From: Patescibacteria group bacterium
GTDB taxonomy: Bacteria > Patescibacteriota > Doudnabacteria > UBA920
Assembly: GCA_036726225.1 (NCBI GenBank)
Contig: DAIMCS010000005.1
Location: 3,808 to 67,807, forward strand
DNA length: 64,000 bases
Direction of reading: 5' to 3'
Positions 3,241 to 63,967 of the stretch are shown one piece after another. The notes beneath the pieces are model-generated. The model saw nothing but the letters and a program-made list of their open reading frames with translations. It was not told the origin of the DNA and did no database searches. Position 1 is the stretch's first letter; each line of letters starts with the position of its first letter. The position numbers were made by a program, and so were the translations under genes.

Positions 3241-4098
3241 TTAACTTGCCAAACACGCGTTATAAGCCCTTACTTGAGAGTTATATTCCTGTTTTAGCGA
3301 CCCTAAAACATCTACTTTATTATTGTAAATTTTAACCAAATTGTTATATTCGGAAACTTTTCTGTTATATTCCTCGTATTCGGCTTTGGTTTTTGGGTCA
3401 CTTGAATCCAGCTCCTGCTTTTTAACGCTTAACTCTGCCGCCAGGGAATCAACTTCAGCCTGTAAAAAATTGATCTGGGTTTTTATATTTGAGTTAACAG
3501 TTGGGCAGCTGCTCGCCGGCCTGCCAAACTCCTGCACCGCCATCCAAACCTTTTTGCCTTTGTACGTGCCCTTGCCCACGGCCACGCCTATTTCGGTATA
3601 TTTTGGATTTAAGATGTTTGCCCTGTGTCCCGGGCTGTCCATCCACGCCTTTACTAAGGCCTCATCGTCTTCAAAATTCCCCAGCGCAAGGTTTTCACCA
3701 ATGGAGATGTAATCATAGCCCGCTTCTTTAGCCAAATCCGCCGCCGCCTTGCCCTGCGGGCTGTCGTGCTCAAAATACTGCTGGACAAACATATCTTTCA
3801 GTTTGTTTTGGGCAGCCACATTCAGCTTGCTGTTAGTTTGTAGGGCGGGCAAATTGCCGTTCTGACTGCGGTTTTGGTTGGTCCAAAACAATACTCCGTT
3901 TACGGTTAAAAAAGTTTCCTGCTCAAATAAACTGCCAATTAAGGGCGGCGGGGTGGAAATATCTTCTTTTATTTCCTCAAATATGGGGCTTTGGACAAGC
4001 TCCGGCAGTTTGTGGGCGTACTTTTGGATTTGGAACCTGTACCGCCAGCCAAAAACCACCAAAACTAAAATGAAAATAAATGCTAAAACTTTCTTCAT
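3241..4098 (-). CDS. CAP (SCP/PR-1-like) domain protein with N-terminal TM and C-terminal coiled coil
   Basis: GHRANILNPKYTEIGVAV CAP motif. C-terminal heptad-rich region. Confidence 0.65.
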   Translation of the reverse strand: MKKVLAFIFILVLVVFGWRYRFQIQKYAHKLPELVQSPIFEEIKEDISTPPPLIGSLFEQETFLTVNGVLFWTNQNRSQNGNLPALQTNSKLNVAAQNKLKDMFVQQYFEHDSPQGKAAADLAKEAGYDYISIGENLALGNFEDDEALVKAWMDSPGHRANILNPKYTEIGVAVGKGTYKGKKVWMAVQEFGRPASSCPTVNSNIKTQINFLQAEVDSLAAELSVKKQELDSSDPKTKAEYEEYNRKVSEYNNLVKIYNNKVDVLGSLKQEYNSQVRAYNACLAS

Positions 4099-4101
4099 AT
4101 G

Positions 4102-4329
4102 TTACCTAATTATCGGCTCCGGAAGGTGTGGGTCTACTATAGATTTGCCGTTGGGAAGCTCGCATGACCTGGGGTAGTAATCTGCTTTAACCGGATAACC
4201 TGCGGCTACGCATTCTTCAAAAGTCGACACCTTAGCCTCTTTGCTTTTTTTAAGTGAAGGATAAAGCAGCATAAACAATACTATTACTGCGGCCAAAAAC
4301 AAAAACATTACGGAAATTATTTTTTTCAT
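4102..4329 (-). CDS. Small membrane protein, hypothetical
   Basis: N-terminal TM. Two Cys. Abuts the neighbouring genes. Confidence 0.3.
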   Translation of the reverse strand: MKKIISVMFLFLAAVIVLFMLLYPSLKKSKEAKVSTFEECVAAGYPVKADYYPRSCELPNGKSIVDPHLPEPIIR

Positions 4330-4586
4330 ACCGTTGCAGACAGGAAACGCTTTAATCTTTGTTTAAGATAACGCTTCCCGAATCCTGATTTTAAATATTT
4401 TTCTCTAACCATTGCATCCAGCTTATTCAGACAGGCCTCATAATAAACTAAAATGAATGGCCCACGACCTTTTGTATAACCAAATAAATTTTTTTGATGT
4501 TGATTAAAGCGTTTCCGTAAATCACTGGTAAATCCTGTATATAGTAGTCCGGTTTTCGTACTTTTTAAAACGTAAACATAATACAT
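4326..4586 (-). CDS. GIY-YIG nuclease domain protein
   Basis: YVYVLKS...LYTGFTSDLRKRFNQH GIY-YIG signature. Confidence 0.7.
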   Translation of the reverse strand: MYYVYVLKSTKTGLLYTGFTSDLRKRFNQHQKNLFGYTKGRGPFILVYYEACLNKLDAMVREKYLKSGFGKRYLKQRLKRFLSATV

Positions 4587-9620: not shown

Positions 9621-10604
9621 ATGAAACTCCTAATAGTCGGTTCAGTCGCATACGATTCCATAAAAACGCCTTTTGGCAAGGCTAATAAAACCCTAGGCGG
9701 CAGCGCCACGTATTTTTCTTTGGCCGCGAGCTTTTTTACCAAACCTTCTCTGGTAGCTGTAGTTGGGCAGGATTTTAAAGATGAAGAAGTATTTAAACGC
9801 CTGGGGATAAACATTAGTGGGTTGGAAAAACAACCAGGCAAAACTTTTGCCTGGGGAGGGGAATATAGTTTTGATTTAAACTCCAGGAAGACTTTGTTTA
9901 CTCATTTGAATGTGTTTGAAAATTTTAAGCCAAAATTATCATCGGATCACAAAAAATCAAAATTTGTTTTTTTGGGCAACATCCACCCATCCCTTCAGCT
10001 GGATGTTTTAAAGCAGGTTAATGCGCCTAAATTTGTTGGGCTGGATACTATGAATTTGTGGATAGAAAAAACTTTAAAAGATTTGAAAACCGTTTTAAAA
10101 AAAGTTGATATTTTAATAATAAACGATTCAGAAGCGCGGGAGTTATCGCGGGAACATAATTTGCTGAAAGGCGCTAAAAAAATTCTGTCGCTAATGCAAT
10201 CACCCTCCCCTAGCCCCTCCCATCAAGGGAGGGGAACCAAAAACATTCCCTCCCCTAGAGGGGGAGGGTTAGGGAGGGGTGAAAAAATTGTGATCATCAA
10301 ACGCGGCGAATTCGGTTTGCTCATGTTCCAAAAAGGAAACATTTTCCATCTTCCCGGCTATCCGCTTGAAGATGTGGTTGACCCCACCGGTGCGGGCGAC
10401 AGCTTTGCCGGCGGGTTTTTTGGCTATTTGGCCAAGACCGATGATATTTCCTGGCCAAACCTAAAAAAAGCATGCGTCGCAGGCTCGGTTATGGCTTCTT
10501 TTTGTGTGGAAAAATTAGGGACTAAAAGGCTATTAGAAATTAAAAGCTTAGACATAACCCAAAGGCTAAAAGATTTTAAAACATTGACTCATTTTGAAAT
10601 TTAG
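9621..10604 (+). CDS. PfkB-family carbohydrate kinase (ribokinase-like) carrying an in-frame repeat-derived insertion
   Basis: DPTGAGDSFAGGF anion-hole motif. GC-rich repeat family 1 at 10203-10282 is in frame and encodes SPSPSPSHQGRG...GGGLGRGEK. Confidence 0.75.
   Translation: MKLLIVGSVAYDSIKTPFGKANKTLGGSATYFSLAASFFTKPSLVAVVGQDFKDEEVFKRLGINISGLEKQPGKTFAWGGEYSFDLNSRKTLFTHLNVFENFKPKLSSDHKKSKFVFLGNIHPSLQLDVLKQVNAPKFVGLDTMNLWIEKTLKDLKTVLKKVDILIINDSEARELSREHNLLKGAKKILSLMQSPSPSPSHQGRGTKNIPSPRGGGLGRGEKIVIIKRGEFGLLMFQKGNIFHLPGYPLEDVVDPTGAGDSFAGGFFGYLAKTDDISWPNLKKACVAGSVMASFCVEKLGTKRLLEIKSLDITQRLKDFKTLTHFEI
10203..10282. repeat. GC-rich palindromic repeat family 1, copy b (two tandem units) inside the PfkB coding sequence
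   Basis: ccctcccctagcccctcccatcaagggaggggaa followed by ccctcccctagagggggagggttagggaggggtg. Matches 14579-14614 almost base for base. Confidence 0.7.
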
Positions 10605-14513: not shown

Positions 14514-14616
14514 CCCTCCCCCTTGCCTGCCTACCGCAGGCAGGTGGGGAGGGCAAGGGAGGGGGTAAAAGCATCCGCCACCCTCCCCTAACCCCTCCCA
14601 TCCAGGGAGGGGAATT
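14514..14616. repeat. GC-rich palindromic repeat family 1, copy c (composite, two hairpins) between convergent genes
   Basis: ccctcccccttgcctgcctaccgcaggcaggtggggaggg... then accctcccctaacccctcccatccagggaggggaa. Confidence 0.7.
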
Positions 14617-50647: not shown

Positions 50648-50676
50648 TTGGTGTAGGGCCCGCCAATGGCGGGCCG
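50648..50676. repeat. REP-like hairpin with a GTAG-type head (left flank of the RAYT gene)
   Basis: tgtagggcccgccaatggcgggccg. Confidence 0.6.
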
Positions 50677-50677
50677 T

Positions 50678-51178
50678 TTATTTAATTATAGCAAATTTTT
50701 GATTATATTCGTCCAATTCCCACTGCTTAGGATTATTGACTATATATTCGCGGATTCGCGTTAAATCCTCTTGAGAACGAATAACATGATCATAAAATGA
50801 ATGTTGCCATTCAAAATTTGAATTTATATTGCGGATAGCTTTAGAAACAACATTTTTATATGAGCCTATAATTTTAGAAAGACTTACCTGTTTGTAGGGC
50901 CGGCCATCGGCCGGCAGCTGTTTGATTATGACTATTCCGTGAATATGATTCGGCATAACGACAAAAACATCTAAGCCTACATTAGGGTAATGGTTGGGCA
51001 CTTCTTTCCAAAATTTTTCTGCAATTATACCCTGTTCATCCAGAACTACCAGATCATTTTTTACCTTCCCGAAACATTCTAATCGATTTTGAACGCAGAT
51101 CGTTACAAAATAATAACCGGGGGTTGTATAATCAAATTTTTGCAAACGATAAGAGCTTCTTTGCGGCAATTTATTCAT
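50678..51178 (-). CDS. REP-associated tyrosine transposase (IS200/IS605-family HUH, RAYT-like)
   Basis: HUH motif MPNHIHGIV. Size around 165 aa. Flanked by inverted REP hairpins. Confidence 0.7.
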   Translation of the reverse strand: MNKLPQRSSYRLQKFDYTTPGYYFVTICVQNRLECFGKVKNDLVVLDEQGIIAEKFWKEVPNHYPNVGLDVFVVMPNHIHGIVIIKQLPADGRPYKQVSLSKIIGSYKNVVSKAIRNINSNFEWQHSFYDHVIRSQEDLTRIREYIVNNPKQWELDEYNQKFAIIK

Positions 51179-51193
51179 TTGTTCCAATTTAAA

Positions 51194-51218
51194 CGGCCAG
51201 GCAATGCCTGGCCCTACA
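51194..51218. repeat. REP-like hairpin (right flank of the RAYT gene, inverted relative to the left one)
   Basis: cggccaggcaatgcctggccctaca. Its reverse complement begins tgtagggcc. Confidence 0.6.
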
Positions 51219-55093: not shown

Positions 55094-55453
55094 TTAGTGA
55101 TTAGTTATTAGTTTTTTAATTCTAAAATATTTAATTAAACTCAAACCAATAAAACTAAGTCCAATATAAGTTAATGCATTAACATAAAAATTTTTTTGAT
55201 AATAGCTAGGTACATTCTCATTCACTTCTAAGCAACGTTTTATTTTTAAAGGCCAACCAACGTGATAGCAAGTAGCATCAGCGTCATAAAAATTTAGCCA
55301 AAACTTAGGCAAGTTTTTAATATCACCATCGATTACGCTTTGATTGCCGGCAAATATATTATAGTAATTCATTACAAAATAATTTACAGCCAGTCCAATA
55401 ATTATGCTCCATATAACCAAACTCGTTTTTGTTTGCAGACTGAAAATTTTCAT
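55094..55453 (-). CDS. Small two-TM membrane protein, MKIFSLETKKH paralog family, member 1
   Basis: N-terminal MKIFSLQTK, the GWP motif and a C-terminal TM + basic tail shared with 57810-58674. Confidence 0.45.
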   Translation of the reverse strand: MKIFSLQTKTSLVIWSIIIGLAVNYFVMNYYNIFAGNQSVIDGDIKNLPKFWLNFYDADATCYHVGWPLKIKRCLEVNENVPSYYQKNFYVNALTYIGLSFIGLSLIKYFRIKKLITNH

Positions 55454-56613: not shown

Positions 56614-56835
56614 TTAGGAAAAAGCTCCAGGAGGAAAATCAATTTTTATTGGCATAAACGCCAATAAGGCATTATAAATTAATACAATTATGCCTAAAAT
56701 TAAAAGTATCAGGCCTAAAATACGTTGCATGCTGGTTTTCTGATTTTCATCGAGCTTATTATGCCTAAGAAGAAATATACCCAGAATGATAGCAATGATT
56801 GACCCGACAAATTGTTTCCAAAATATTATTATCAT
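56614..56835 (-). CDS. Small membrane protein, hypothetical
   Basis: Two TM segments. Lies between the tkt halves. Confidence 0.3.
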   Translation of the reverse strand: MIIIFWKQFVGSIIAIILGIFLLRHNKLDENQKTSMQRILGLILLILGIIVLIYNALLAFMPIKIDFPPGAFS

Positions 56836-57758: not shown

Positions 57759-57809
57759 TTCGATTCCGACAAAGTCGGAAGAGAAATCTGTTTTTTTATA
57801 GATCTCTCC

Positions 57810-58169
57810 CTACGGTCGAGATGGTGGGAATGTTTGATTTTTCTTTCTAAAATGTCTTACTAAACTTAAAATGATCAAGGAGATGGCTATCCAAAACAAA
57901 GTGTCTAAAGAGTACGCGCGAAAATATCCTGGCTCAGTATAAAATGGCGGTTTTATATCATAGCATGGGTCGCAGATTACTCTCGATACTGAGAAGGGCC
58001 ATCCAATTTGCTGCTTTACATTAACCCATACTGAAGGATCTATTAGAAAAGTACCGTCCGCGCTTTGGTCTCTATAACTTAAATTGAATACAAAAAAATT
58101 TATCGCCACCCCAAGTACCAAACCCCAACCTACCAAATGTTTTTTTGTTTCCAAACTAAAGATTTTCAT
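57810..58169 (-). CDS. MKIFSLETKKH-family small membrane protein, member 2
   Basis: Paralogous to 55094-55453. Confidence 0.45.
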   Translation of the reverse strand: MKIFSLETKKHLVGWGLVLGVAINFFVFNLSYRDQSADGTFLIDPSVWVNVKQQIGWPFSVSRVICDPCYDIKPPFYTEPGYFRAYSLDTLFWIAISLIILSLVRHFRKKNQTFPPSRP

Positions 58170-58423
58170 ACTTTTTGTTTTCTAAGATGTCTTAATAGAC
58201 TTAAAACAATAAAAGCTACGAGAATCCAAAATAACAAATCTAAATTTTGATTATTGAAAGGCCAACTCAAACTTTCCAAGCAATCGATCTGGTCATTAAT
58301 TATTGAAGCGCAATTATACCTATTTTGAAGTGCTTTAAAGGTAATTGCATAATTAATAAAAACACCCAATAAAAGACTCCAAATTACTAAATGTTTTTTT
58401 GTTTCCAGGCTAAAAATTTTCAT
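58166..58423 (-). CDS. MKIFSLETKKH-family small membrane protein, member 3
   Basis: Tandem paralog with an overlapping stop/start. Confidence 0.45.
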   Translation of the reverse strand: MKIFSLETKKHLVIWSLLLGVFINYAITFKALQNRYNCASIINDQIDCLESLSWPFNNQNLDLLFWILVAFIVLSLLRHLRKQKV

Positions 58424-58674
58424 ACAGAGCCTTTATTTCTAAAATGCTTTACTAAACTTAAAATTCCCAAAAAAATCAGAAACCAAAAAATAAAACTGAA
58501 AAATAAGGAGCTAAACGGCCAATATGCCTTAAGCGCCTGGTCGCAAGAATTGGTTACTACGCAATTGTTATGCTGCCATGATCTTTTAAAAGAAATAATA
58601 TTATTTATAGCAACGGACAAACCAGCGCTCCATCCCAACAAATGCCTAATTGTCTCCAAACTAAAAAAGTTCAT
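58420..58674 (-). CDS. MKIFSLETKKH-family small membrane protein, member 4
   Basis: Tandem paralog starting MNFFSLETIRH. Confidence 0.45.
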   Translation of the reverse strand: MNFFSLETIRHLLGWSAGLSVAINNIISFKRSWQHNNCVVTNSCDQALKAYWPFSSLFFSFIFWFLIFLGILSLVKHFRNKGSV

Positions 58675-58763
58675 AGACTTTCATTATTACTCTCCCCAAT
58701 TTATGGGGAGATGTCCCGACATCAGTCGGGACAGAGGGGTTAAGCTAAAGCATTAACCTCTCC

Positions 58764-59405
58764 CTAAGAGTTTACTGCCATTTGTAGCTTTTCGTAAGCC
58801 AAATTTACATCATCCGCTTTAACCAAAGCAGAGCCTACGCAAATTAAGTCCGCCCCAGCTTCTTTTATCGCTTTTATGTTGGTTTCGTTAACTCCGCCGT
58901 CTACCTCTATTATAGCATGCGGTTTTAACTCCTTTAATTGCTTAATTCTGCCCAAAGTCGACTCTATAAACTGTTGTCCCTGCTTACCTGGAACCACGCT
59001 CATTATTAAATATTGGTCTGCCTCAACATCGGCTAATGCCTTAACAGCCGTTTTAGGATTTATAGCCACAGATGTCTTAAAATTCATTGCCTTAATTGTT
59101 GCCAAAGCTTTCTTTAAATCAGCAGGCGAGGAGTAGGCTTCGTAATGAACAATAATAGTTTTAAAGCCGCAAATTTGATAGTCTAAAAAATCGTTCGGGG
59201 CTTTAAGCATTAAATGCGCTTCCCATTGGAAGGCGGGGTTTAGCGTGTCCATTTCGGCAGCAGACAACAATTTATTTTCAATAAACTCGCCGTCACCAAA
59301 ATCCACCTGAATTCTTTCTAAGGCCGGCAACTTGGAAATTCTGAAAACTTTTTCTAAAAAGCCTTCTTTAGTTTGCTCTAAAATTGCTGGTAGAATTAAG
59401 GACAT
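58764..59405 (-). CDS. rpe: Ribulose-phosphate 3-epimerase
   Basis: HLML and VDGG motifs. Size. Confidence 0.75.
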   Translation of the reverse strand: MSLILPAILEQTKEGFLEKVFRISKLPALERIQVDFGDGEFIENKLLSAAEMDTLNPAFQWEAHLMLKAPNDFLDYQICGFKTIIVHYEAYSSPADLKKALATIKAMNFKTSVAINPKTAVKALADVEADQYLIMSVVPGKQGQQFIESTLGRIKQLKELKPHAIIEVDGGVNETNIKAIKEAGADLICVGSALVKADDVNLAYEKLQMAVNS

Positions 59406-59410
59406 GGGAA

Positions 59411-59776
59411 CTAGGAGTTAGGAGTTAGATTTTTAATCATTGTATTTAACATCCGCATTATTTCATCAAGCAAAGGGTCAACTTTTGAAAAATTTAAATT
59501 CTTGCCAAAAGGTAATTTTTTAGCAACAGCGATGTGACTTTCAAGCTCGGCGCCGGAACCAAAAGCAATTACTAAAAATTGACGGAATTCTTTTTTACTG
59601 CCAAGACGTCGGCCTTCGGCTATATTAGCTGGGATAGACACTCCGGCTCTTCTAGTTTGTGAAGTTAATCCATATATCTCTATTTTTGGATAGTCATCAG
59701 TTAACTCATAGATGGCTACCACAAGTTCCACTGATTTCTGCCAAACAATTAAATCTTTATAACTTTGGATTTCCAT
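59411..59776 (-). CDS. Four-helix-bundle protein (23S rRNA IVS protein family)
   Basis: YKDLIVWQKS...AEG pattern typical of PF05635. Confidence 0.6.
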   Translation of the reverse strand: MEIQSYKDLIVWQKSVELVVAIYELTDDYPKIEIYGLTSQTRRAGVSIPANIAEGRRLGSKKEFRQFLVIAFGSGAELESHIAVAKKLPFGKNLNFSKVDPLLDEIMRMLNTMIKNLTPNS

Positions 59777-59783
59777 CTAATTT

Positions 59784-60242
59784 CTATTTCCTATCTCCTA
59801 ATTCCTCTAACTTAGCAATTTTCTCGACCCTCCTCTGGTGCCTGCCGCCTTCAAACCGGGTTTCAATAAATAAATCTATGGCTCGCTTTACTTCATCAAC
59901 ATTCAAAAACTGGGCTCCTAAAGACAAAATATTTGCGTTATTGTGCTGCCTGGACAAACTCACAATATCCTCGTGCCCGCCATAAAACAAGGCTGCCCGA
60001 ATACCCTTAACCTTATTTGCCGCCATTGCCTCCCCGTTTCCCGACCTGCCTAAAATAATCCCAATGCTGCCGGGATTGGCAGCAACTTTTTGGGCGCAGG
60101 GAAAAATAAAATCAGGATAGTCGTCGTCCGGGTCAAAGGTATGAGGACCGCAGTCTTCAATTTCCTGGTCCGTATTTTTTAAATGCTCCAGTATTTGTTT
60201 TTTTAATTCAAACCCTGCGTGGTCAGATGCGATATAGATCAT
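59784..60242 (-). CDS. rpiB: Ribose-5-phosphate isomerase B
   Basis: MIYIASDHAGFELK N-terminus. ATG at 60242 preferred over the track start. Confidence 0.8.
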   Translation of the reverse strand: MIYIASDHAGFELKKQILEHLKNTDQEIEDCGPHTFDPDDDYPDFIFPCAQKVAANPGSIGIILGRSGNGEAMAANKVKGIRAALFYGGHEDIVSLSRQHNNANILSLGAQFLNVDEVKRAIDLFIETRFEGGRHQRRVEKIAKLEELGDRK

Positions 60243-60302
60243 AAATATTGAAGCTTGAAATTTGAAGCATGAACAAGCTTGCTTCATTTTTCATGCTTTA
60301 TG

Positions 60303-60986
60303 CTACATATTAATTATCTGGTTAAAATCTTTCGCAATTAAACTCGCCCCGCCCACTAGAAGACCGTCAACATTTCTTTCAGCTAAAAGAGCGGGTCCTG
60401 TAGACACATTCGCGCTGCCGCCATACAAAACTGTTTTAACGCCGTACTTAGACTTTATAAATAAAGACACCTTTTCCGCGTGTTCAGGCGTTGGGGTTTT
60501 GCCGGAACCAATTGCCCAAACCGGTTCATAGGCGACGACAACCAAAGACGCGTCGAGATTTGCCAAGCCAATATCCAACTGGGACTTTAAAACATCAATA
60601 ACTTCCAAATCGTCCTGCTCAACAGTTGTGCCGTAGCCAACGCACAACACCGGCGTAACATTATTTTCTAACAGCGATTTTACTTTTGCGTTAACCATTT
60701 CATCGCTGTCCCCCACTGCCCGTTTTTCACTGTGGCCAATAATGCAATATTTCGCGCCCAGATCTTTTAACTGTGCGGCAGATGTCTGGCCCGTGTAAGC
60801 TCCTTTGTCAGCCCAAAAACAATCTTGGGCCCCGATATTGGGATATTGGATATTGGATATATAAATGGTGGGCGGGCAAAGCACAACTTTATTTTTAGCC
60901 TTGATGTTTATCGAAGCCGCCAAACCTTGCGCTTCTTTCAGAGTGGTTGGATTAAGCTTCCAGTTAGCGATAATCAATTTTTTCAT
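60303..60986 (-). CDS. tpiA: Triose-phosphate isomerase
   Basis: ANWKLN and the catalytic Glu loop. Confidence 0.9.
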   Translation of the reverse strand: MKKLIIANWKLNPTTLKEAQGLAASINIKAKNKVVLCPPTIYISNIQYPNIGAQDCFWADKGAYTGQTSAAQLKDLGAKYCIIGHSEKRAVGDSDEMVNAKVKSLLENNVTPVLCVGYGTTVEQDDLEVIDVLKSQLDIGLANLDASLVVVAYEPVWAIGSGKTPTPEHAEKVSLFIKSKYGVKTVLYGGSANVSTGPALLAERNVDGLLVGGASLIAKDFNQIINM

Positions 60987-61026
60987 AAATATATCGAATC
61001 AACGAATAAGACGAATCTGCGAAGGA

Positions 61027-61410
61027 CTACGAATCCCTGCGCAAGACCCGATGGGGCAGGGCGGATTTGGCCCAAAAATTAATTAATAAACCTAATTTCA
61101 AATTTAAAACCTTTAAATATCTTTGGACTTGGGCAAAATCATCTTCATTTAAAAAAGGCTTTGCCTTAACTTCAACTAAAATTTTATCAAACAAAACTAA
61201 ATCCGCGCGATTGCCGGTACCCGAAGCGACCAATTCTCTTCTGCATGGAATTTCCAGTTCTTTTGCCCTGTCCTCAAAACTATCGCAAAACTGCCTTTCT
61301 TTAGCAAACCTTCCCAGCCTATTTTGGACATAAAAACAAATGCCGTTGATTTGAAAACATTCATCAGCATATAAGACTTTGGTTTTGTCCACTTGGTATC
61401 GTGTTTGCAT
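61027..61410 (-). CDS. GxxExxY-like PD-(D/E)xK family small protein, hypothetical
   Basis: DLVLFDKILVEVKA nuclease-like motif. About 127 aa. Flanked by inverted cgaatcaacgaata / cgaatctgcgaa modules. Confidence 0.4.
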   Translation of the reverse strand: MQTRYQVDKTKVLYADECFQINGICFYVQNRLGRFAKERQFCDSFEDRAKELEIPCRRELVASGTGNRADLVLFDKILVEVKAKPFLNEDDFAQVQRYLKVLNLKLGLLINFWAKSALPHRVLRRDS

Positions 61411-61461
61411 TCGTTTATTCGTAGTTATTCGTTGATTCGTTCCATTCGCAGATTCGATGTA

Positions 61462-62463
61462 TTACTCTCCCTTTAAAAATTTCGTACTAACTTCCGGCGG
61501 GATGGGGTTTACGGGAATGCCGGTGGCAAACTCAAACCCTGCCCAAATAGTAATGCGCGGAAAAATAGTTAAGTGCCAGTGGTAAGCCTCTTCCTCGTGC
61601 GCGCTGTGGCGGCCCGCCCCATCCCGCCCTTTTAGCGGCATATTATGAATATAAAAATTAAGCGGCGGGTCGGACAATTTGGTGTAAAGCTGGCCCAAAG
61701 TAACCTTTAAGACAAAAGATAAATGCCTTATTTCATCTTCTGACATATGTTCAAAGCGCGCGCCGTGCTTTTTGGGCAGGATCCAGGTTTCAAACGGACT
61801 TCGGCTGGCATAAGCCGAAATAACCACAAAATGCTCACTCTCGTAAACCAGCCGGTCCTTAACTTTTATCTCCTCTTTAATAATATCACAATAAATACAA
61901 GTTTTGTGGGTCTGGTAATAGTGGTAACAGCCTAAAATTTCGGAATGGATGTGGGGCGGCACAATTGGCGTGGTAATAAGCTGGTAGTGGGGGTGGATAA
62001 TAGAAGCCCCGGCATCCCGCCCGTGGTTATGGAAAATTTGGATGTAACTTAGCTTTTGGTGCTGGTCTAAATCTTTTATCCGTTCTATAAAAGTTCTAAG
62101 CGTTAATTCCACCGTGGCAATGGACTGCAGGGCCACGGGCTCGTTATGCGCGCGGGTAATAATAACTTCGTGGTCGCCGTTACCCGAATGCGACACATAA
62201 AATTCTTTATGGCTATAAGTTGCGACATGTTCCAAGGTTGCAAATTTATTGGGGATGACCCTAATTTGCCAATCTTTATTGTTTGGGGTTTTTACAATTT
62301 CCGGGTTAGTGTGCTCATTACCGGGACAAAAAACACATTTATTGTCTACTTCCGGAATGCCGTGCATAACCGAATAGGTTTTATACTGGTCCGGCCGTTT
62401 GCCTCTGGAGGGCGCTATAAGCACCCAGTGTTTTGTAATTGGATTTTGCCTAAATTCGGACAT
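61462..62463 (-). CDS. Galactose-1-phosphate uridylyltransferase-like (HIT-family GalT)
   Basis: CVFCPGNE zinc motif and HPHYQ histidine-triad-like active site. Confidence 0.65.
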   Translation of the reverse strand: MSEFRQNPITKHWVLIAPSRGKRPDQYKTYSVMHGIPEVDNKCVFCPGNEHTNPEIVKTPNNKDWQIRVIPNKFATLEHVATYSHKEFYVSHSGNGDHEVIITRAHNEPVALQSIATVELTLRTFIERIKDLDQHQKLSYIQIFHNHGRDAGASIIHPHYQLITTPIVPPHIHSEILGCYHYYQTHKTCIYCDIIKEEIKVKDRLVYESEHFVVISAYASRSPFETWILPKKHGARFEHMSEDEIRHLSFVLKVTLGQLYTKLSDPPLNFYIHNMPLKGRDGAGRHSAHEEEAYHWHLTIFPRITIWAGFEFATGIPVNPIPPEVSTKFLKGE

Positions 62464-62547
62464 AAAATTATTGTAATAAACTACAGAATACTATTTTAAA
62501 CCTACAGATAACTACAGAAGTTCCGTAAAAATCTCTGGTTTTCCAAA

Positions 62548-62591
62548 TTCTGTAGTCATCTGTAGTAATTTATAGCTTTTGTAGTTTATTC
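62548..62591. promoter_or_regulatory. Conserved CTGTAG triple-repeat motif (copy 2), overlapping the ruvX stop
   Basis: Matches 55587-55630. An inverted partner ctacagataactacag sits at 62499-62514. Confidence 0.4.
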
Positions 62592-62962
62592 CTACTATCC
62601 AAATAATTTTGCAACAAAATTTGTGCTGCTAAACTGTCCAGATCTTTTTTACCACCGCTGATATTTTCCGCCATAGCCGATGATAAGCGCTCGTCAGTAA
62701 TATCTATTTTAATATCTATTAATTTCTCCAATTTCTCTTTGAAAGCTTTCACCTCTTCCGTTTTTTTTGTTTCCTGTCCACTCATATTTAGCGGCCAGCC
62801 TAGAACAATTTGTGATACCTGATTTTCGTCGATGACCGATTTTATAGTTTCCCAAAATTCTTTTGGTGAAAGTATTTTAAGCTCTCTGGCAAACGTCAAA
62901 GATTCGTCGGAAATTGCCAAACCAATCCTTTTTTCACCAAAATCAATTCCAAGGGTTTTCAT
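62570..62962 (-). CDS. ruvX: Holliday-junction resolvase-like YqgF/RuvX
   Basis: LGIDFGEKRIGLAISD N-terminus. Confidence 0.85.
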   Translation of the reverse strand: MKTLGIDFGEKRIGLAISDESLTFARELKILSPKEFWETIKSVIDENQVSQIVLGWPLNMSGQETKKTEEVKAFKEKLEKLIDIKIDITDERLSSAMAENISGGKKDLDSLAAQILLQNYLDSRNKLQKL

Positions 62963-63351
62963 ACTCCCCTCCCCTTATTAATAAGGGGAGGTTGGGAGGG
63001 GATATTCTTTATTTCCTGGATTATCCTCTCAACAACTCCTTCTAAATTGTTTAATACTTCGTTATCGTAAAACCTCAGTACACTTATATTTTTGGAATTA
63101 AAAAATCGGGTTCTATTTTTGTCATAAGTAATGTTGTCTTTTTGCATATGCTGACTACCGTCTAACTCTACTGCCAACCTTAAAGACGGACAATAAAAGT
63201 CGGCTATAAATTTTCCCACACTATATTGCCTTGTAAATTTAAAACCCATAATTTGATTTCTTCTTAATACTGACCACATTTTTCTTTCGGCATCTGTGGA
63301 ATTATTTCTCAATTCTTTTCTGAAACCTTTTAAAATTTTATCCTGATACAT
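62959..63351 (-). CDS. DUF559 (Vsr-like endonuclease domain) protein, selfish-type insertion
   Basis: FYCPSLRLAVELDGSQH pattern of DUF559. Flanked by GC palindromes at both ends. Confidence 0.65.
   Translation of the reverse strand: MYQDKILKGFRKELRNNSTDAERKMWSVLRRNQIMGFKFTRQYSVGKFIADFYCPSLRLAVELDGSQHMQKDNITYDKNRTRFFNSKNISVLRFYDNEVLNNLEGVVERIIQEIKNIPSQPPLINKGRGV
62964..63002. repeat. GC-rich palindromic repeat family 1, copy d (encodes the DUF559 C-terminus; supplies the SD for ruvX)
   Basis: ctcccctccccttattaataaggggaggttgggaggggat. Confidence 0.6.
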
Positions 63352-63353
63352 AT

Positions 63354-63388
63354 CACCCCCTAACCCCCTCTTATTATAAGAGGGGGAA
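63354..63388. repeat. GC-rich palindromic repeat family 1, copy e (upstream of the DUF559 start)
   Basis: caccccctaaccccctcttattataagagggggaa. Confidence 0.55.
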
Positions 63389-63967
63389 CTACTTACTCTC
63401 CCCTAAAATCACTATTAGTGTCTTTTCACTGCCCTTACTATAAACTTTAAGCCTAACGCTGTCTCCAACGTTAAAATCTTTTAACAAATCCCCTAAGGGA
63501 TGTTCTTCGTCAACCTTTTGGCCATTTACTTCCAAAATAATATCGTTTTCCATAAGGCCTGCTTTGTCCGCGGGCGACCCGGGCAGCACTGCGTAATCAT
63601 CGGCAGTTTGTCCGTGTACTATTAAGGCACCGTAAGTTTGAGCCAGCTTTTCCTGTTCAACCAAAGCCGGGGTCACCATTACATATCTCACACCCAAAAA
63701 TGGTCTGGTAATTTTTCCATTTTTTTGAAAGCTTAGCAAAGCTTTGGCGGCATCTTTAGAAGCTATGGCAAACCCAACCAACTGCCCTTGCTGGTCAATT
63801 GCGGTATTAATACCAATAACCTGGCCTGCAAGATTAAGTAACGGCCCGCCGCTGTTGCCGGGGTTTATGGCCGCATCGGTCTGAATAACGCCGGAAAGGT
63901 TTTCTATACTTTGGCTGCTGCCGGCAGTAATTCTCCTGCCTATGCCGGAAATAATTCCCGATGTCAC
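63389..63967 (-). CDS. HtrA/DegP-like serine protease, C-terminal part (catalytic Ser + PDZ); the N-terminus lies beyond the window
   Basis: [10 protein letters not shown] catalytic serine motif. A PDZ-like tail. The frame is open to the window edge. Confidence 0.7.

Follow-up and report, generated by a model that had tools for sequence, protein, structure and literature searches.

Genes and cassettes of the locus

We analyzed a stretch of 64,000 nucleotides (the window) from contig DAIMCS010000005.1 of an uncultured Patescibacteria group bacterium of the Doudnabacteria, where a sugar-metabolism operon on the minus strand holds three small genes, each lying between two housekeeping genes and bracketed by inverted repeats. 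The strain is found in several metagenomes, and homologues of its TpiA come under the names Candidatus Doudnabacteria or Patescibacteria. In the order of transcription the genes are those for HtrA, DUF559, RuvX, a GalT-like HIT protein, GxxExxY, TpiA, RpiB, IVP, and Rpe, the neighbors of the three small genes having been assigned with Pfam and NCBIfam; beyond Rpe the operon continues with small membrane open reading frames (ORFs), a split transketolase, PfkB, GapA, Pgk, a gene resembling the repetitive extragenic palindrome (REP)-associated tyrosine transposases (RAYT), and Eno. Each of the three small-gene families has only one copy within the 64 kb, so that their presence together inside 4 kb is a real cluster. 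The window contains no rRNA, and all the inserts sit between protein-coding genes.

The preliminary description of this DNA, made from the letters alone, had named the three families as a four-helix-bundle intervening sequence (IVS) protein, a GxxExxY-like protein, and a DUF559 endonuclease, and the Pfam and NCBIfam scores, all above the curated cut-offs, agree with these names. The first protein belongs to 23S_rRNA_IVP (IVP; PF05635, E = 7.6e-34, 116.6 bits, cut-off 33.8; TIGR02436, 114.5 bits, cut-off 24), and its closest solved structure is 2gsc (E = 1e-19). The second belongs to PDDEXK_3 (PF13366, E = 1.8e-14, 54.6 bits, cut-off 22) and matches TIGR04256 (E = 1.8e-13, 50.8 bits, cut-off 35); here the motif reads KERQF (ExxF, with F for Y), and the D...EVK core is present. 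The third, a member of DUF559 (PF04480, E = 5e-33, 113.6 bits, cut-off 20.6), has the ELDG..H motif and matches the PDB entry 3hrl, an "endonuclease-like protein" (E = 5e-20). It also matches weakly both 3r3p, a "mobile intron protein" (the catalytic domain of a homing endonuclease), and the PADLOC "HEase" model, and as far as such sequence matches can suggest, this keeps a homing-like route open. Against the PADLOC defence models, DUF559 gave weak nuclease-domain matches only, and there were no matches for IVP, GxxExxY, or the GIY-YIG and RAYT-like proteins described below.

Each cassette fills its intercistronic spacer, beginning at the upstream stop codon or in overlap with it and ending 0 to 2 nt before the downstream ATG (Table 1). 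RpiB and GalT both terminate at stop codons inside the 5' arms, and some arms reach into coding sequence, namely, the C termini of RpiB, IVP, and DUF559. At the junction with ruvX, the ATG (62960-62962) overlaps the DUF559 stop codon (ATGA), and the 3' arm carries a Shine-Dalgarno sequence, GGGGAGGGGAG, 2 to 3 nt ahead of that ATG. It had been suggested that the inserted elements provide ribosome binding sites or terminators for their neighbors. The RuvX Shine-Dalgarno sequence and the RpiB and GalT stop codons bear out such help in part, but terminators do not: a scan found promoters and terminators in the numbers given by shuffled sequence, and none of the arms has the form of a canonical intrinsic terminator.

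Table 1. Cassettes, arms, and hairpins of the operon (positions in the window)
Feature	Position	Strand	Description
IVP cassette	59405..59808	-	Four-helix-bundle gene 59411-59776 plus arms
IVP 5' arm	59782-59808	-	TAGGAGA/TAGGAAA/TAGAAAT heptads; contains RpiB stop codon 59784-59786
IVP 3' arm	59405-59430	-	CTCCTAA heptads; codes for IVP C terminus; end 0-2 nt from rpe ATG (59405)
IVP arms, pairing	59413-59428 / 59791-59806		16 nt, 88% complementary
GxxExxY (PD-(D/E)XK) element	60987..61463	-	Gene 61027-61410; boundaries from alignment with L140, L142, L144
GxxExxY 5' arm	61411-61463	-	CGAAT repeats; overlaps galT stop codon 61462-61464
GxxExxY 3' arm	60987-61034	-	CGAAT repeats; abuts tpiA ATG (60986)
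GxxExxY arms, pairing	60988-61034 / 61417-61463		47 nt, 79% complementary
DUF559 (Vsr-like nuclease) cassette	62959..63392	-	Gene 62959-63351 plus two GC palindromes
DUF559 upstream GC palindrome	63364-63386	.	In spacer after HtrA stop codon (63389-63391)
DUF559 downstream GC palindrome	62968-62991	.	Inside DUF559 C-terminal codons; bears ruvX Shine-Dalgarno
DUF559 arms, pairing	62979-63005 / 63350-63376		27 nt, 81% complementary; each arm also a local GC palindrome
Gene-less hairpin, ruvX-galT	62502..62565	.	CTACAGA repeats; repeat type also flanks L097 GxxExxY pseudogene
Gene-less hairpin, tpiA-rpiB	60251..60298	.	Junction hairpin in nearly every relative, sequence different each time
GC hairpin cluster 3' of rpe	58688..58760	.	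Gene-less
Gene-less hairpin, other operon junction	57760-57830
RAYT-like HUH tyrosine transposase cassette, Pgk-Eno	50652..51218	-	Gene 50678-51187, REP-like GC palindromes flanking

Inverted repeats around the three genes

The claim that inverted repeats surround each gene was confirmed, as all the strings quoted for them are present. The layout as first drawn needs correction: although the brackets are real, several arms lie inside coding sequence, and the two GxxExxY modules have one left-to-right order on both sides rather than a mirror order. The arms of the GxxExxY element have the termini AATACATCGAAT and ATTCGATATATT. Both arms of the DUF559 cassette are locally palindromic, so that local and long-range pairing are both possible there. 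As a control we calculated the flank-to-flank duplex energy of all called genes, both those of the window and those of about 50 related loci. The three window cassettes gave -41.0, -53.4, and -40.5 kcal/mol, compared to a median of -19.2 kcal/mol for housekeeping genes (n = 212), only 0.9 to 1.9% of which scored as well. Across the whole sample, 20 cassettes from four families (the three above and GIY-YIG) had higher flank complementarity than the 212 backbone genes (Mann-Whitney p = 7e-11), with median energies of -45 kcal/mol for IVP, -43 for GIY-YIG, -34 for DUF559, and -19 for the backbone. Folding of the sense RNA, by minimum energy as well as by centroid, paired the flanks across the ORF in all three window cassettes (z of -2.1 to -3.3). 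Within the 64-kb window there are no extra copies of the cassette arms, which locally are thus not high-copy repeats.

These figures bear on the simplest alternative, in which three ordinary small genes lie between AT-rich spacers whose inverted repeats are chance matches. The 16-nt IVP repeat would by itself suit that idea, as it is unremarkable because many comparable pairs occur within the 4 kb. We rejected this alternative and consider it vanishingly improbable, since the three cassettes fall in the top 2% of the 212 controls, the family-wide difference is as given above, and the arms are conserved across loci.

Contents of the operon junctions in relatives

The comparison set comprised 45 related loci (designated with L numbers) from a GalT-alignment scan, extended by look-ups to about 50 operon loci, and host relationships were read from a four-protein tree. 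The backbone HtrA-RuvX-GalT-TpiA-RpiB-Rpe-TktN-TktC-PfkB-GapA-Pgk-Eno is conserved in these loci. In relatives the same junctions are empty or hold a gene-less hairpin, a pseudogenised cassette, or a different cassette. GalT-TpiA is the most varied example: its entire spacer is swapped between relatives, and it contains a short hairpin, GxxExxY (the window, L142/L143, and a pseudogene in L097), IVP (L091, L095, and L132), DUF559 (L129), a Bro-N protein (L100, L104, and L135), or unknown ORFs. RpiB-Rpe holds IVP (the window, L135, and L150), a Trp-repressor-like gene (L100), a gene-less hairpin (L132), or only a few bases. Further downstream, DUF559 is found at Rpe-TktN (L094, L103, L104, and L142), IVP (L088) or GxxExxY (L112) at TktN-TktC, GIY-YIG (L088, L093, and L094) or IVP (L103) at TktC-PfkB, and GIY-YIG at GapA-Pgk (L104). 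The preliminary description had proposed independent insertions, and the relatives, whose junctions lack the cassettes or carry others, support independent, lineage-specific ones, as does the presence of the GxxExxY element in unrelated operons. The Bro-N proteins have 269 to 270 amino acids (L100, 11430-12242; L104, 11052-11861; L135, 1623-2432), and the family name (BRO, N-terminal domain) hints at a phage or virus link.

The proposal that the operon is a hotspot also found support. The four cassette families occur 20 times in 259 kb of backbone (0.77 per 10 kb) versus 3 times in 163 kb of flanking DNA (0.18 per 10 kb; p = 0.01, with the window that prompted the finding included in the counts). 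All of these cassettes (23/23) are co-directional with the host genes.

The GxxExxY element is the clearest case of mobility among the three. A type IV pilus operon (L140), a PrgI/TraC/VirB4-like operon (L144), and the GalT-TpiA junction of L142 contain homologues with 73 to 81% identity and the same arms, and the terminal repeats AATACATCGAAT...ATTCGATGTATT are kept in the unrelated pilus and secretion operons. When the elements are aligned, homology runs from AATACATCGAAT to ATTCGAT(G/A)(T/C)ATT(T), and the flanks beyond are unrelated; these limits define the element in the window as 60987-61463. Among 150 loci, a 15-mer of the 3' arm had no occurrence except next to genes of this sub-family. 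In viral contigs the 15-mer had 86 matches, but none of the three proteins is encoded near any of them, and these are therefore taken as chance matches. In the host tree the window is sister to L135 (90% bootstrap), which has a Bro-N gene at GalT-TpiA, and L142 belongs to a different clade, so that the position shared by the window and L142 is to be explained either by more than one insertion or by lateral exchange. Four GxxExxY elements have in common a conserved terminal stem of 33 pairs (RNAalifold).

For the IVP cassette, both vertical and horizontal signals were obtained. The same gene lies at RpiB-Rpe in the sister genome L135 (87% amino acid identity) and in L150 (70%). At conserved residues, the third codon positions of the window and L135 are 61% identical in IVP and 55 to 66% identical in the flanking genes. 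As the gene is common to both at the same junction and has diverged like its flanks, its insertion predates the split of the two, and on these comparisons the IVP protein is under purifying selection. An ancient, immobile gene with the same flanks in syntenic positions is thus partly what is seen for IVP (L135 and L150) and not what is seen for the locus as a whole. In L132, which has no gene at RpiB-Rpe, the spacer can be aligned with the two outer arms of the IVP cassette of L135 and the window (13/14 and 31/39 positions). An IVP sub-family with TAGCTTG-type arms was seen at three different junctions: homologues about 70% identical and with common TAGCTTG/CAAGCTA arms lie at RpiB-Rpe (L150), between pheS and pheT (L137), and by PrgI/TraC genes (L146). 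The window IVP itself is about 70% identical to IVPs named from other phyla of the Candidate Phyla Radiation (CPR) and 47 to 52% identical to the operon IVPs of Doudnabacteria relatives.

DUF559 occurs at four different junctions, with similar CCCCTCC...GGAGGGG palindromes. Near-identical GC palindromes of the type that flanks DUF559, CCCCTCCCATC(A/C)AGGGAGGGG, are present elsewhere in the window at 10214-10234 and 14592-14612, the former apparently inside a long ORF call.

Gene-less hairpins, heptads, and decay

Besides the cassettes, the operon has hairpins without genes (Table 1), and the two kinds are one class. In the GC cluster 3' of rpe, the inner repeat GAGGGGTTAA..TTAACCTCTC is closely like the flanks of the L093 DUF559 cassette, with no gene between its arms, and in L088 a TAGCG-type hairpin stands alone at TpiA-RpiB and around IVP at TktN-TktC. 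Signs of decay are also present: the L097 GxxExxY gene (3834-4210) has an in-frame TGA after which the frame continues, so that this copy is a pseudogene unless the TGA is an error of sequencing, and fragments are found in L103 and L108. The pairs with and without a gene would fit either entry of cargo into the loop of a hairpin or its deletion from one.

Many hairpin arms consist of TAGNNNN heptads, which often begin at the stop codon of the upstream gene, and with a period of 7 each reading frame meets a stop. This spacing is strongly overrepresented. In 205 intercistronic spacers (the window plus loci L087-L134), successive TAGs lie exactly 7 nt apart 45 times compared to 5.0 expected from shuffles, and successive CTAs 51 times compared to 3.6.

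Origin of the cassettes and alternative explanations

The mobile-insertion reading of the preliminary description is largely supported by these results. At least one of the three cassettes is mobile, and probably all three are. The three genes are each carried by a small cassette of about 400 to 480 bp with inverted-repeat ends, and as a whole we consider it likely that these are mobile single-gene units of the class that forms IVSs in rRNA. Such promoter-less cassettes would enter, or replace, the short hairpins normally present at these junctions, and they would be tolerated because the flanking cistrons keep termination and re-initiation. They may persist for a long time and later decay to solo hairpins. 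Since the architecture is like that of the Coxiella 23S IVS and the CPR rRNA insertions, looping-out of RNA followed by RNase III cleavage is the obvious model: the arms might pair in the polycistronic RNA and loop out the cargo, which would offer RNase III a substrate comparable to the 28-bp Coxiella IVS stem. It is also conceivable that the nuclease cargos (PD-(D/E)XK, Vsr-like DUF559, and GIY-YIG) drive a homing-like spread.

Several results weigh against this explanation. The IVP repeat in the window is short (16 nt). Clean empty sites are rare, "empty" sites usually holding a different hairpin, and insertion is not distinguishable here from an exchange of spacers through homologous recombination between conserved flanks. 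No transposase or integrase is recognizable in any cassette, and no target-site duplication is evident, including at the four GxxExxY insertion sites. A role at the RNA level gains nothing from strand asymmetry, as sense and antisense fold energies and G.U pairs are equal (104 hairpins and 20 cassettes), and among the four GxxExxY elements no pair of the terminal stem differs on both sides (RNAalifold); equal-strand pairing with no compensatory change fits a DNA-level terminal repeat equally well. A tblastn search of the operon-centred fragments with an E. coli RNase III query gave no match, which in fragments of this kind is uninformative. In the lineage of the window and L135 the IVP gene has been passed on vertically and kept by selection, and it may by now be of use to the host. 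The case for DUF559 mobility, as judged from sequence comparison, is made solely by patchy distribution and similar palindromes.

Some of these points would suit a different explanation, in which the hairpins are host intercistronic elements acting in RNA processing, stability, or translational insulation and the small genes have been domesticated and scattered by old rearrangements and losses. Hairpins do occur at most junctions even where there are no genes, TpiA-RpiB having one in nearly every relative; the IVP at RpiB-Rpe is inherited vertically, shows purifying selection, and has diverged no differently from its flanks; and all cassettes are co-directional with the operon. We nevertheless regard this explanation as unlikely. 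One gene-plus-arms unit is found in unrelated operons of different genomes, at least four unrelated families alternate at one junction, sister genomes differ (the window versus L135), and pseudogenised copies exist. The window IVP is moreover nearer to those of other CPR phyla (about 70%) than to the operon IVPs of its Doudnabacteria relatives (47 to 52%).

The RAYT-like gene at Pgk-Eno raises the question of whether the cassettes are moved in trans. This gene (NF047646, E = 3e-16, under the curated cut-off; motif PNHIHGIV) lies about 10 kb from the cassettes in the same operon and is flanked by REP-like GC palindromes, a third copy of which is in frame inside the ORF (50892-50916). RAYTs are known to move short REP sequences rather than cargo of 400 bp. 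An HUH (Y1) single-stranded-DNA transposase of the RAYT/IS200 type could in principle recognize the hairpins, and the cassettes would then be cargo-carrying relatives of REPINs, the REP doublets that form hairpins. Hairpin-forming elements, the lack of target-site duplications, and pairing without strand bias, which fits a hairpin at the DNA level, are all in keeping with such a transposase. The RAYT palindromes, GGCCNGCC..GGCNGGCC-CTACA, are unlike every cassette arm, each cassette sub-family has its own arms, which are single-copy in the 64 kb, and the known RAYT cargo does not reach this length; movement by an HUH enzyme is thus quite improbable. Integron-type gene cassettes, with the hairpins as attC sites, would share the small, promoter-less, co-directional single-gene format and the imperfect hairpins. 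We rejected this as highly improbable. No integrase is present among the called genes and there is no array, the units being single and scattered between housekeeping genes; the repeats lie on both sides of the ORF rather than as one 3' attC, and no RYYYAAC/GTTRRRY core sites were seen in the arms.

Relation to known elements

The gene families and the IVS concept are already known. GxxExxY is reportedly named as IVS cargo in the TIGRFAM text. For DUF559 nothing was found in the literature on a role as IVS cargo, and for IVP and GIY-YIG that status is documented (PMC4990558; 10.1101/2024.02.27.582315). The Coxiella 23S IVS has 428 nt and an ORF of the IVP family (called S23p); its terminal repeats form a stem of 28 bp, which RNase III cuts (PMC4990558). 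In CPR bacteria, rRNA insertions outside introns encode 23S_rRNA_IVP and GIY-YIG proteins (10.1101/2024.02.27.582315). Our cassettes resemble the rRNA IVSs of Coxiella, Leptospira, and CPR bacteria in cargo (PF05635; GIY-YIG proteins are also found among the non-intron rRNA insertions of CPR), in size (about 400 to 480 nt), in sporadic distribution, and in having terminal inverted repeats with a predicted long stem and the ORF in its loop. They differ in their host RNA, which is a polycistronic mRNA, in their exact stop-to-start placement, and in arms that include translation signals (stop codons and a Shine-Dalgarno sequence); excision by RNase III is here only predicted by folding, and strand asymmetry is neutral in this respect.

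Likenesses to other mobile elements are less complete. Like miniature inverted-repeat transposable elements and mobile insertion cassettes, the units have terminal inverted repeats around a non-transposase gene and gene-less derivatives with matching arms, and a repeat-bounded unit is found at non-homologous loci for GxxExxY and for IVP with TAGCTTG arms, though not for the DUF559 of the window. In contrast to those elements, no target-site duplication and no cognate insertion sequence or transposase was found, the copy number is low, and the arms are built from short-period (often heptad) repeats. With the T-even seg and mob homing endonucleases they share small nuclease genes (GIY-YIG and Vsr-like) between conserved genes and presence/absence polymorphism in a pattern of gain, decay, and loss. 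The seg and mob genes, however, have no inverted-repeat boundaries, and the cassette proteins, known from sequence alone, have only a catalytic domain (86 to 130 amino acids), with IVP being no nuclease. REP/REPIN elements and their RAYTs are similar in that hairpin-forming intergenic repeats and a RAYT-like gene with palindromes occur in the same operon, but the cassette arms are unrelated to those palindromes and are not multi-copy in the window. Direct repeats of the TAACTGA heptamer in Beggiatoaceae, cyanobacteria, and Bacteroidetes also bring stops in all three frames (PMC4679880). These repeats and the cyanobacterial short tandemly repeated repetitive sequences are likewise stop-bearing heptads that lie just upstream of starts and overlap upstream stop codons (PMC4679880), whereas the heptads described here are variable (TAGNNNN), are inverted as hairpin arms, and often surround a gene.

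We found no description in the searchable literature of precisely placed, repeat-bounded intercistronic cassettes of these families. The origin and mobility of the IVS and its conserved ORF have been debated since the 1990s, and the Coxiella study offers hypotheses only (PMC4990558). At the operon studied here, IVS cargo families occur as discrete repeat-bounded units between protein-coding genes, with filled, decayed, and gene-less sites that can be compared across genomes, and through this comparison the boundaries, the choice of target, and the life cycle of the elements become directly testable. It also explains a puzzle in CPR annotation, where mini-genes called "four helix bundle," "GxxExxY," "DUF559," and "GIY-YIG" appear inside conserved operons. 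The heptad-stop hairpin arms are a natural insulator design that lets foreign genes sit in essential operons of very small genomes.

A wider proposal, which we put forward tentatively and hold to be possible but doubtful, is that CPR bacteria may harbor undescribed "intercistronic intervening elements," transposase-free single-gene units with terminal repeats that would be the mRNA counterpart, and possibly the source, of the rRNA IVSs. The cargo (a PD-(D/E)XK, Vsr-like, or GIY-YIG nuclease or an Avd-like four-helix bundle) would then double as a mobility or maintenance factor, and the target would be the hairpin that separates the stop codon of one cistron from the start codon of the following one. 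The TAG-heptad arms would make the units harmless by ending translation in every frame, and the stem formed by the arms might let RNase III cut the cargo from the operon mRNA.

Further cassettes and small genes

A further cassette of the same class lies in the window outside the operon. It contains a GIY-YIG gene of 86 amino acids (4326-4586; Pfam E = 4e-16) with the inverted-repeat flanks ATACCGTTGCAGAC and GTCTGCAACGGTAT. Colonisation like that of the sugar-metabolism operon seems to extend to secretion and pilus operons. In another CPR genome, a PrgI/TraC/VirB4-like operon (L144, 1328-3881) has three PDDEXK_3 cassettes in successive junctions, and the secretion operon (PrgI/TraC) of yet another (L146, 2501-4050) carries two IVP cassettes. 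Finally, the operon of the window contains small membrane ORFs of its own. Four of them are paralogous, belong to no known family, and lie between rpe, the transketolase halves, and pfkB (57810-58674 and 55094-55453), and a membrane ORF of 73 amino acids lies between the two transketolase halves (56614-56835).

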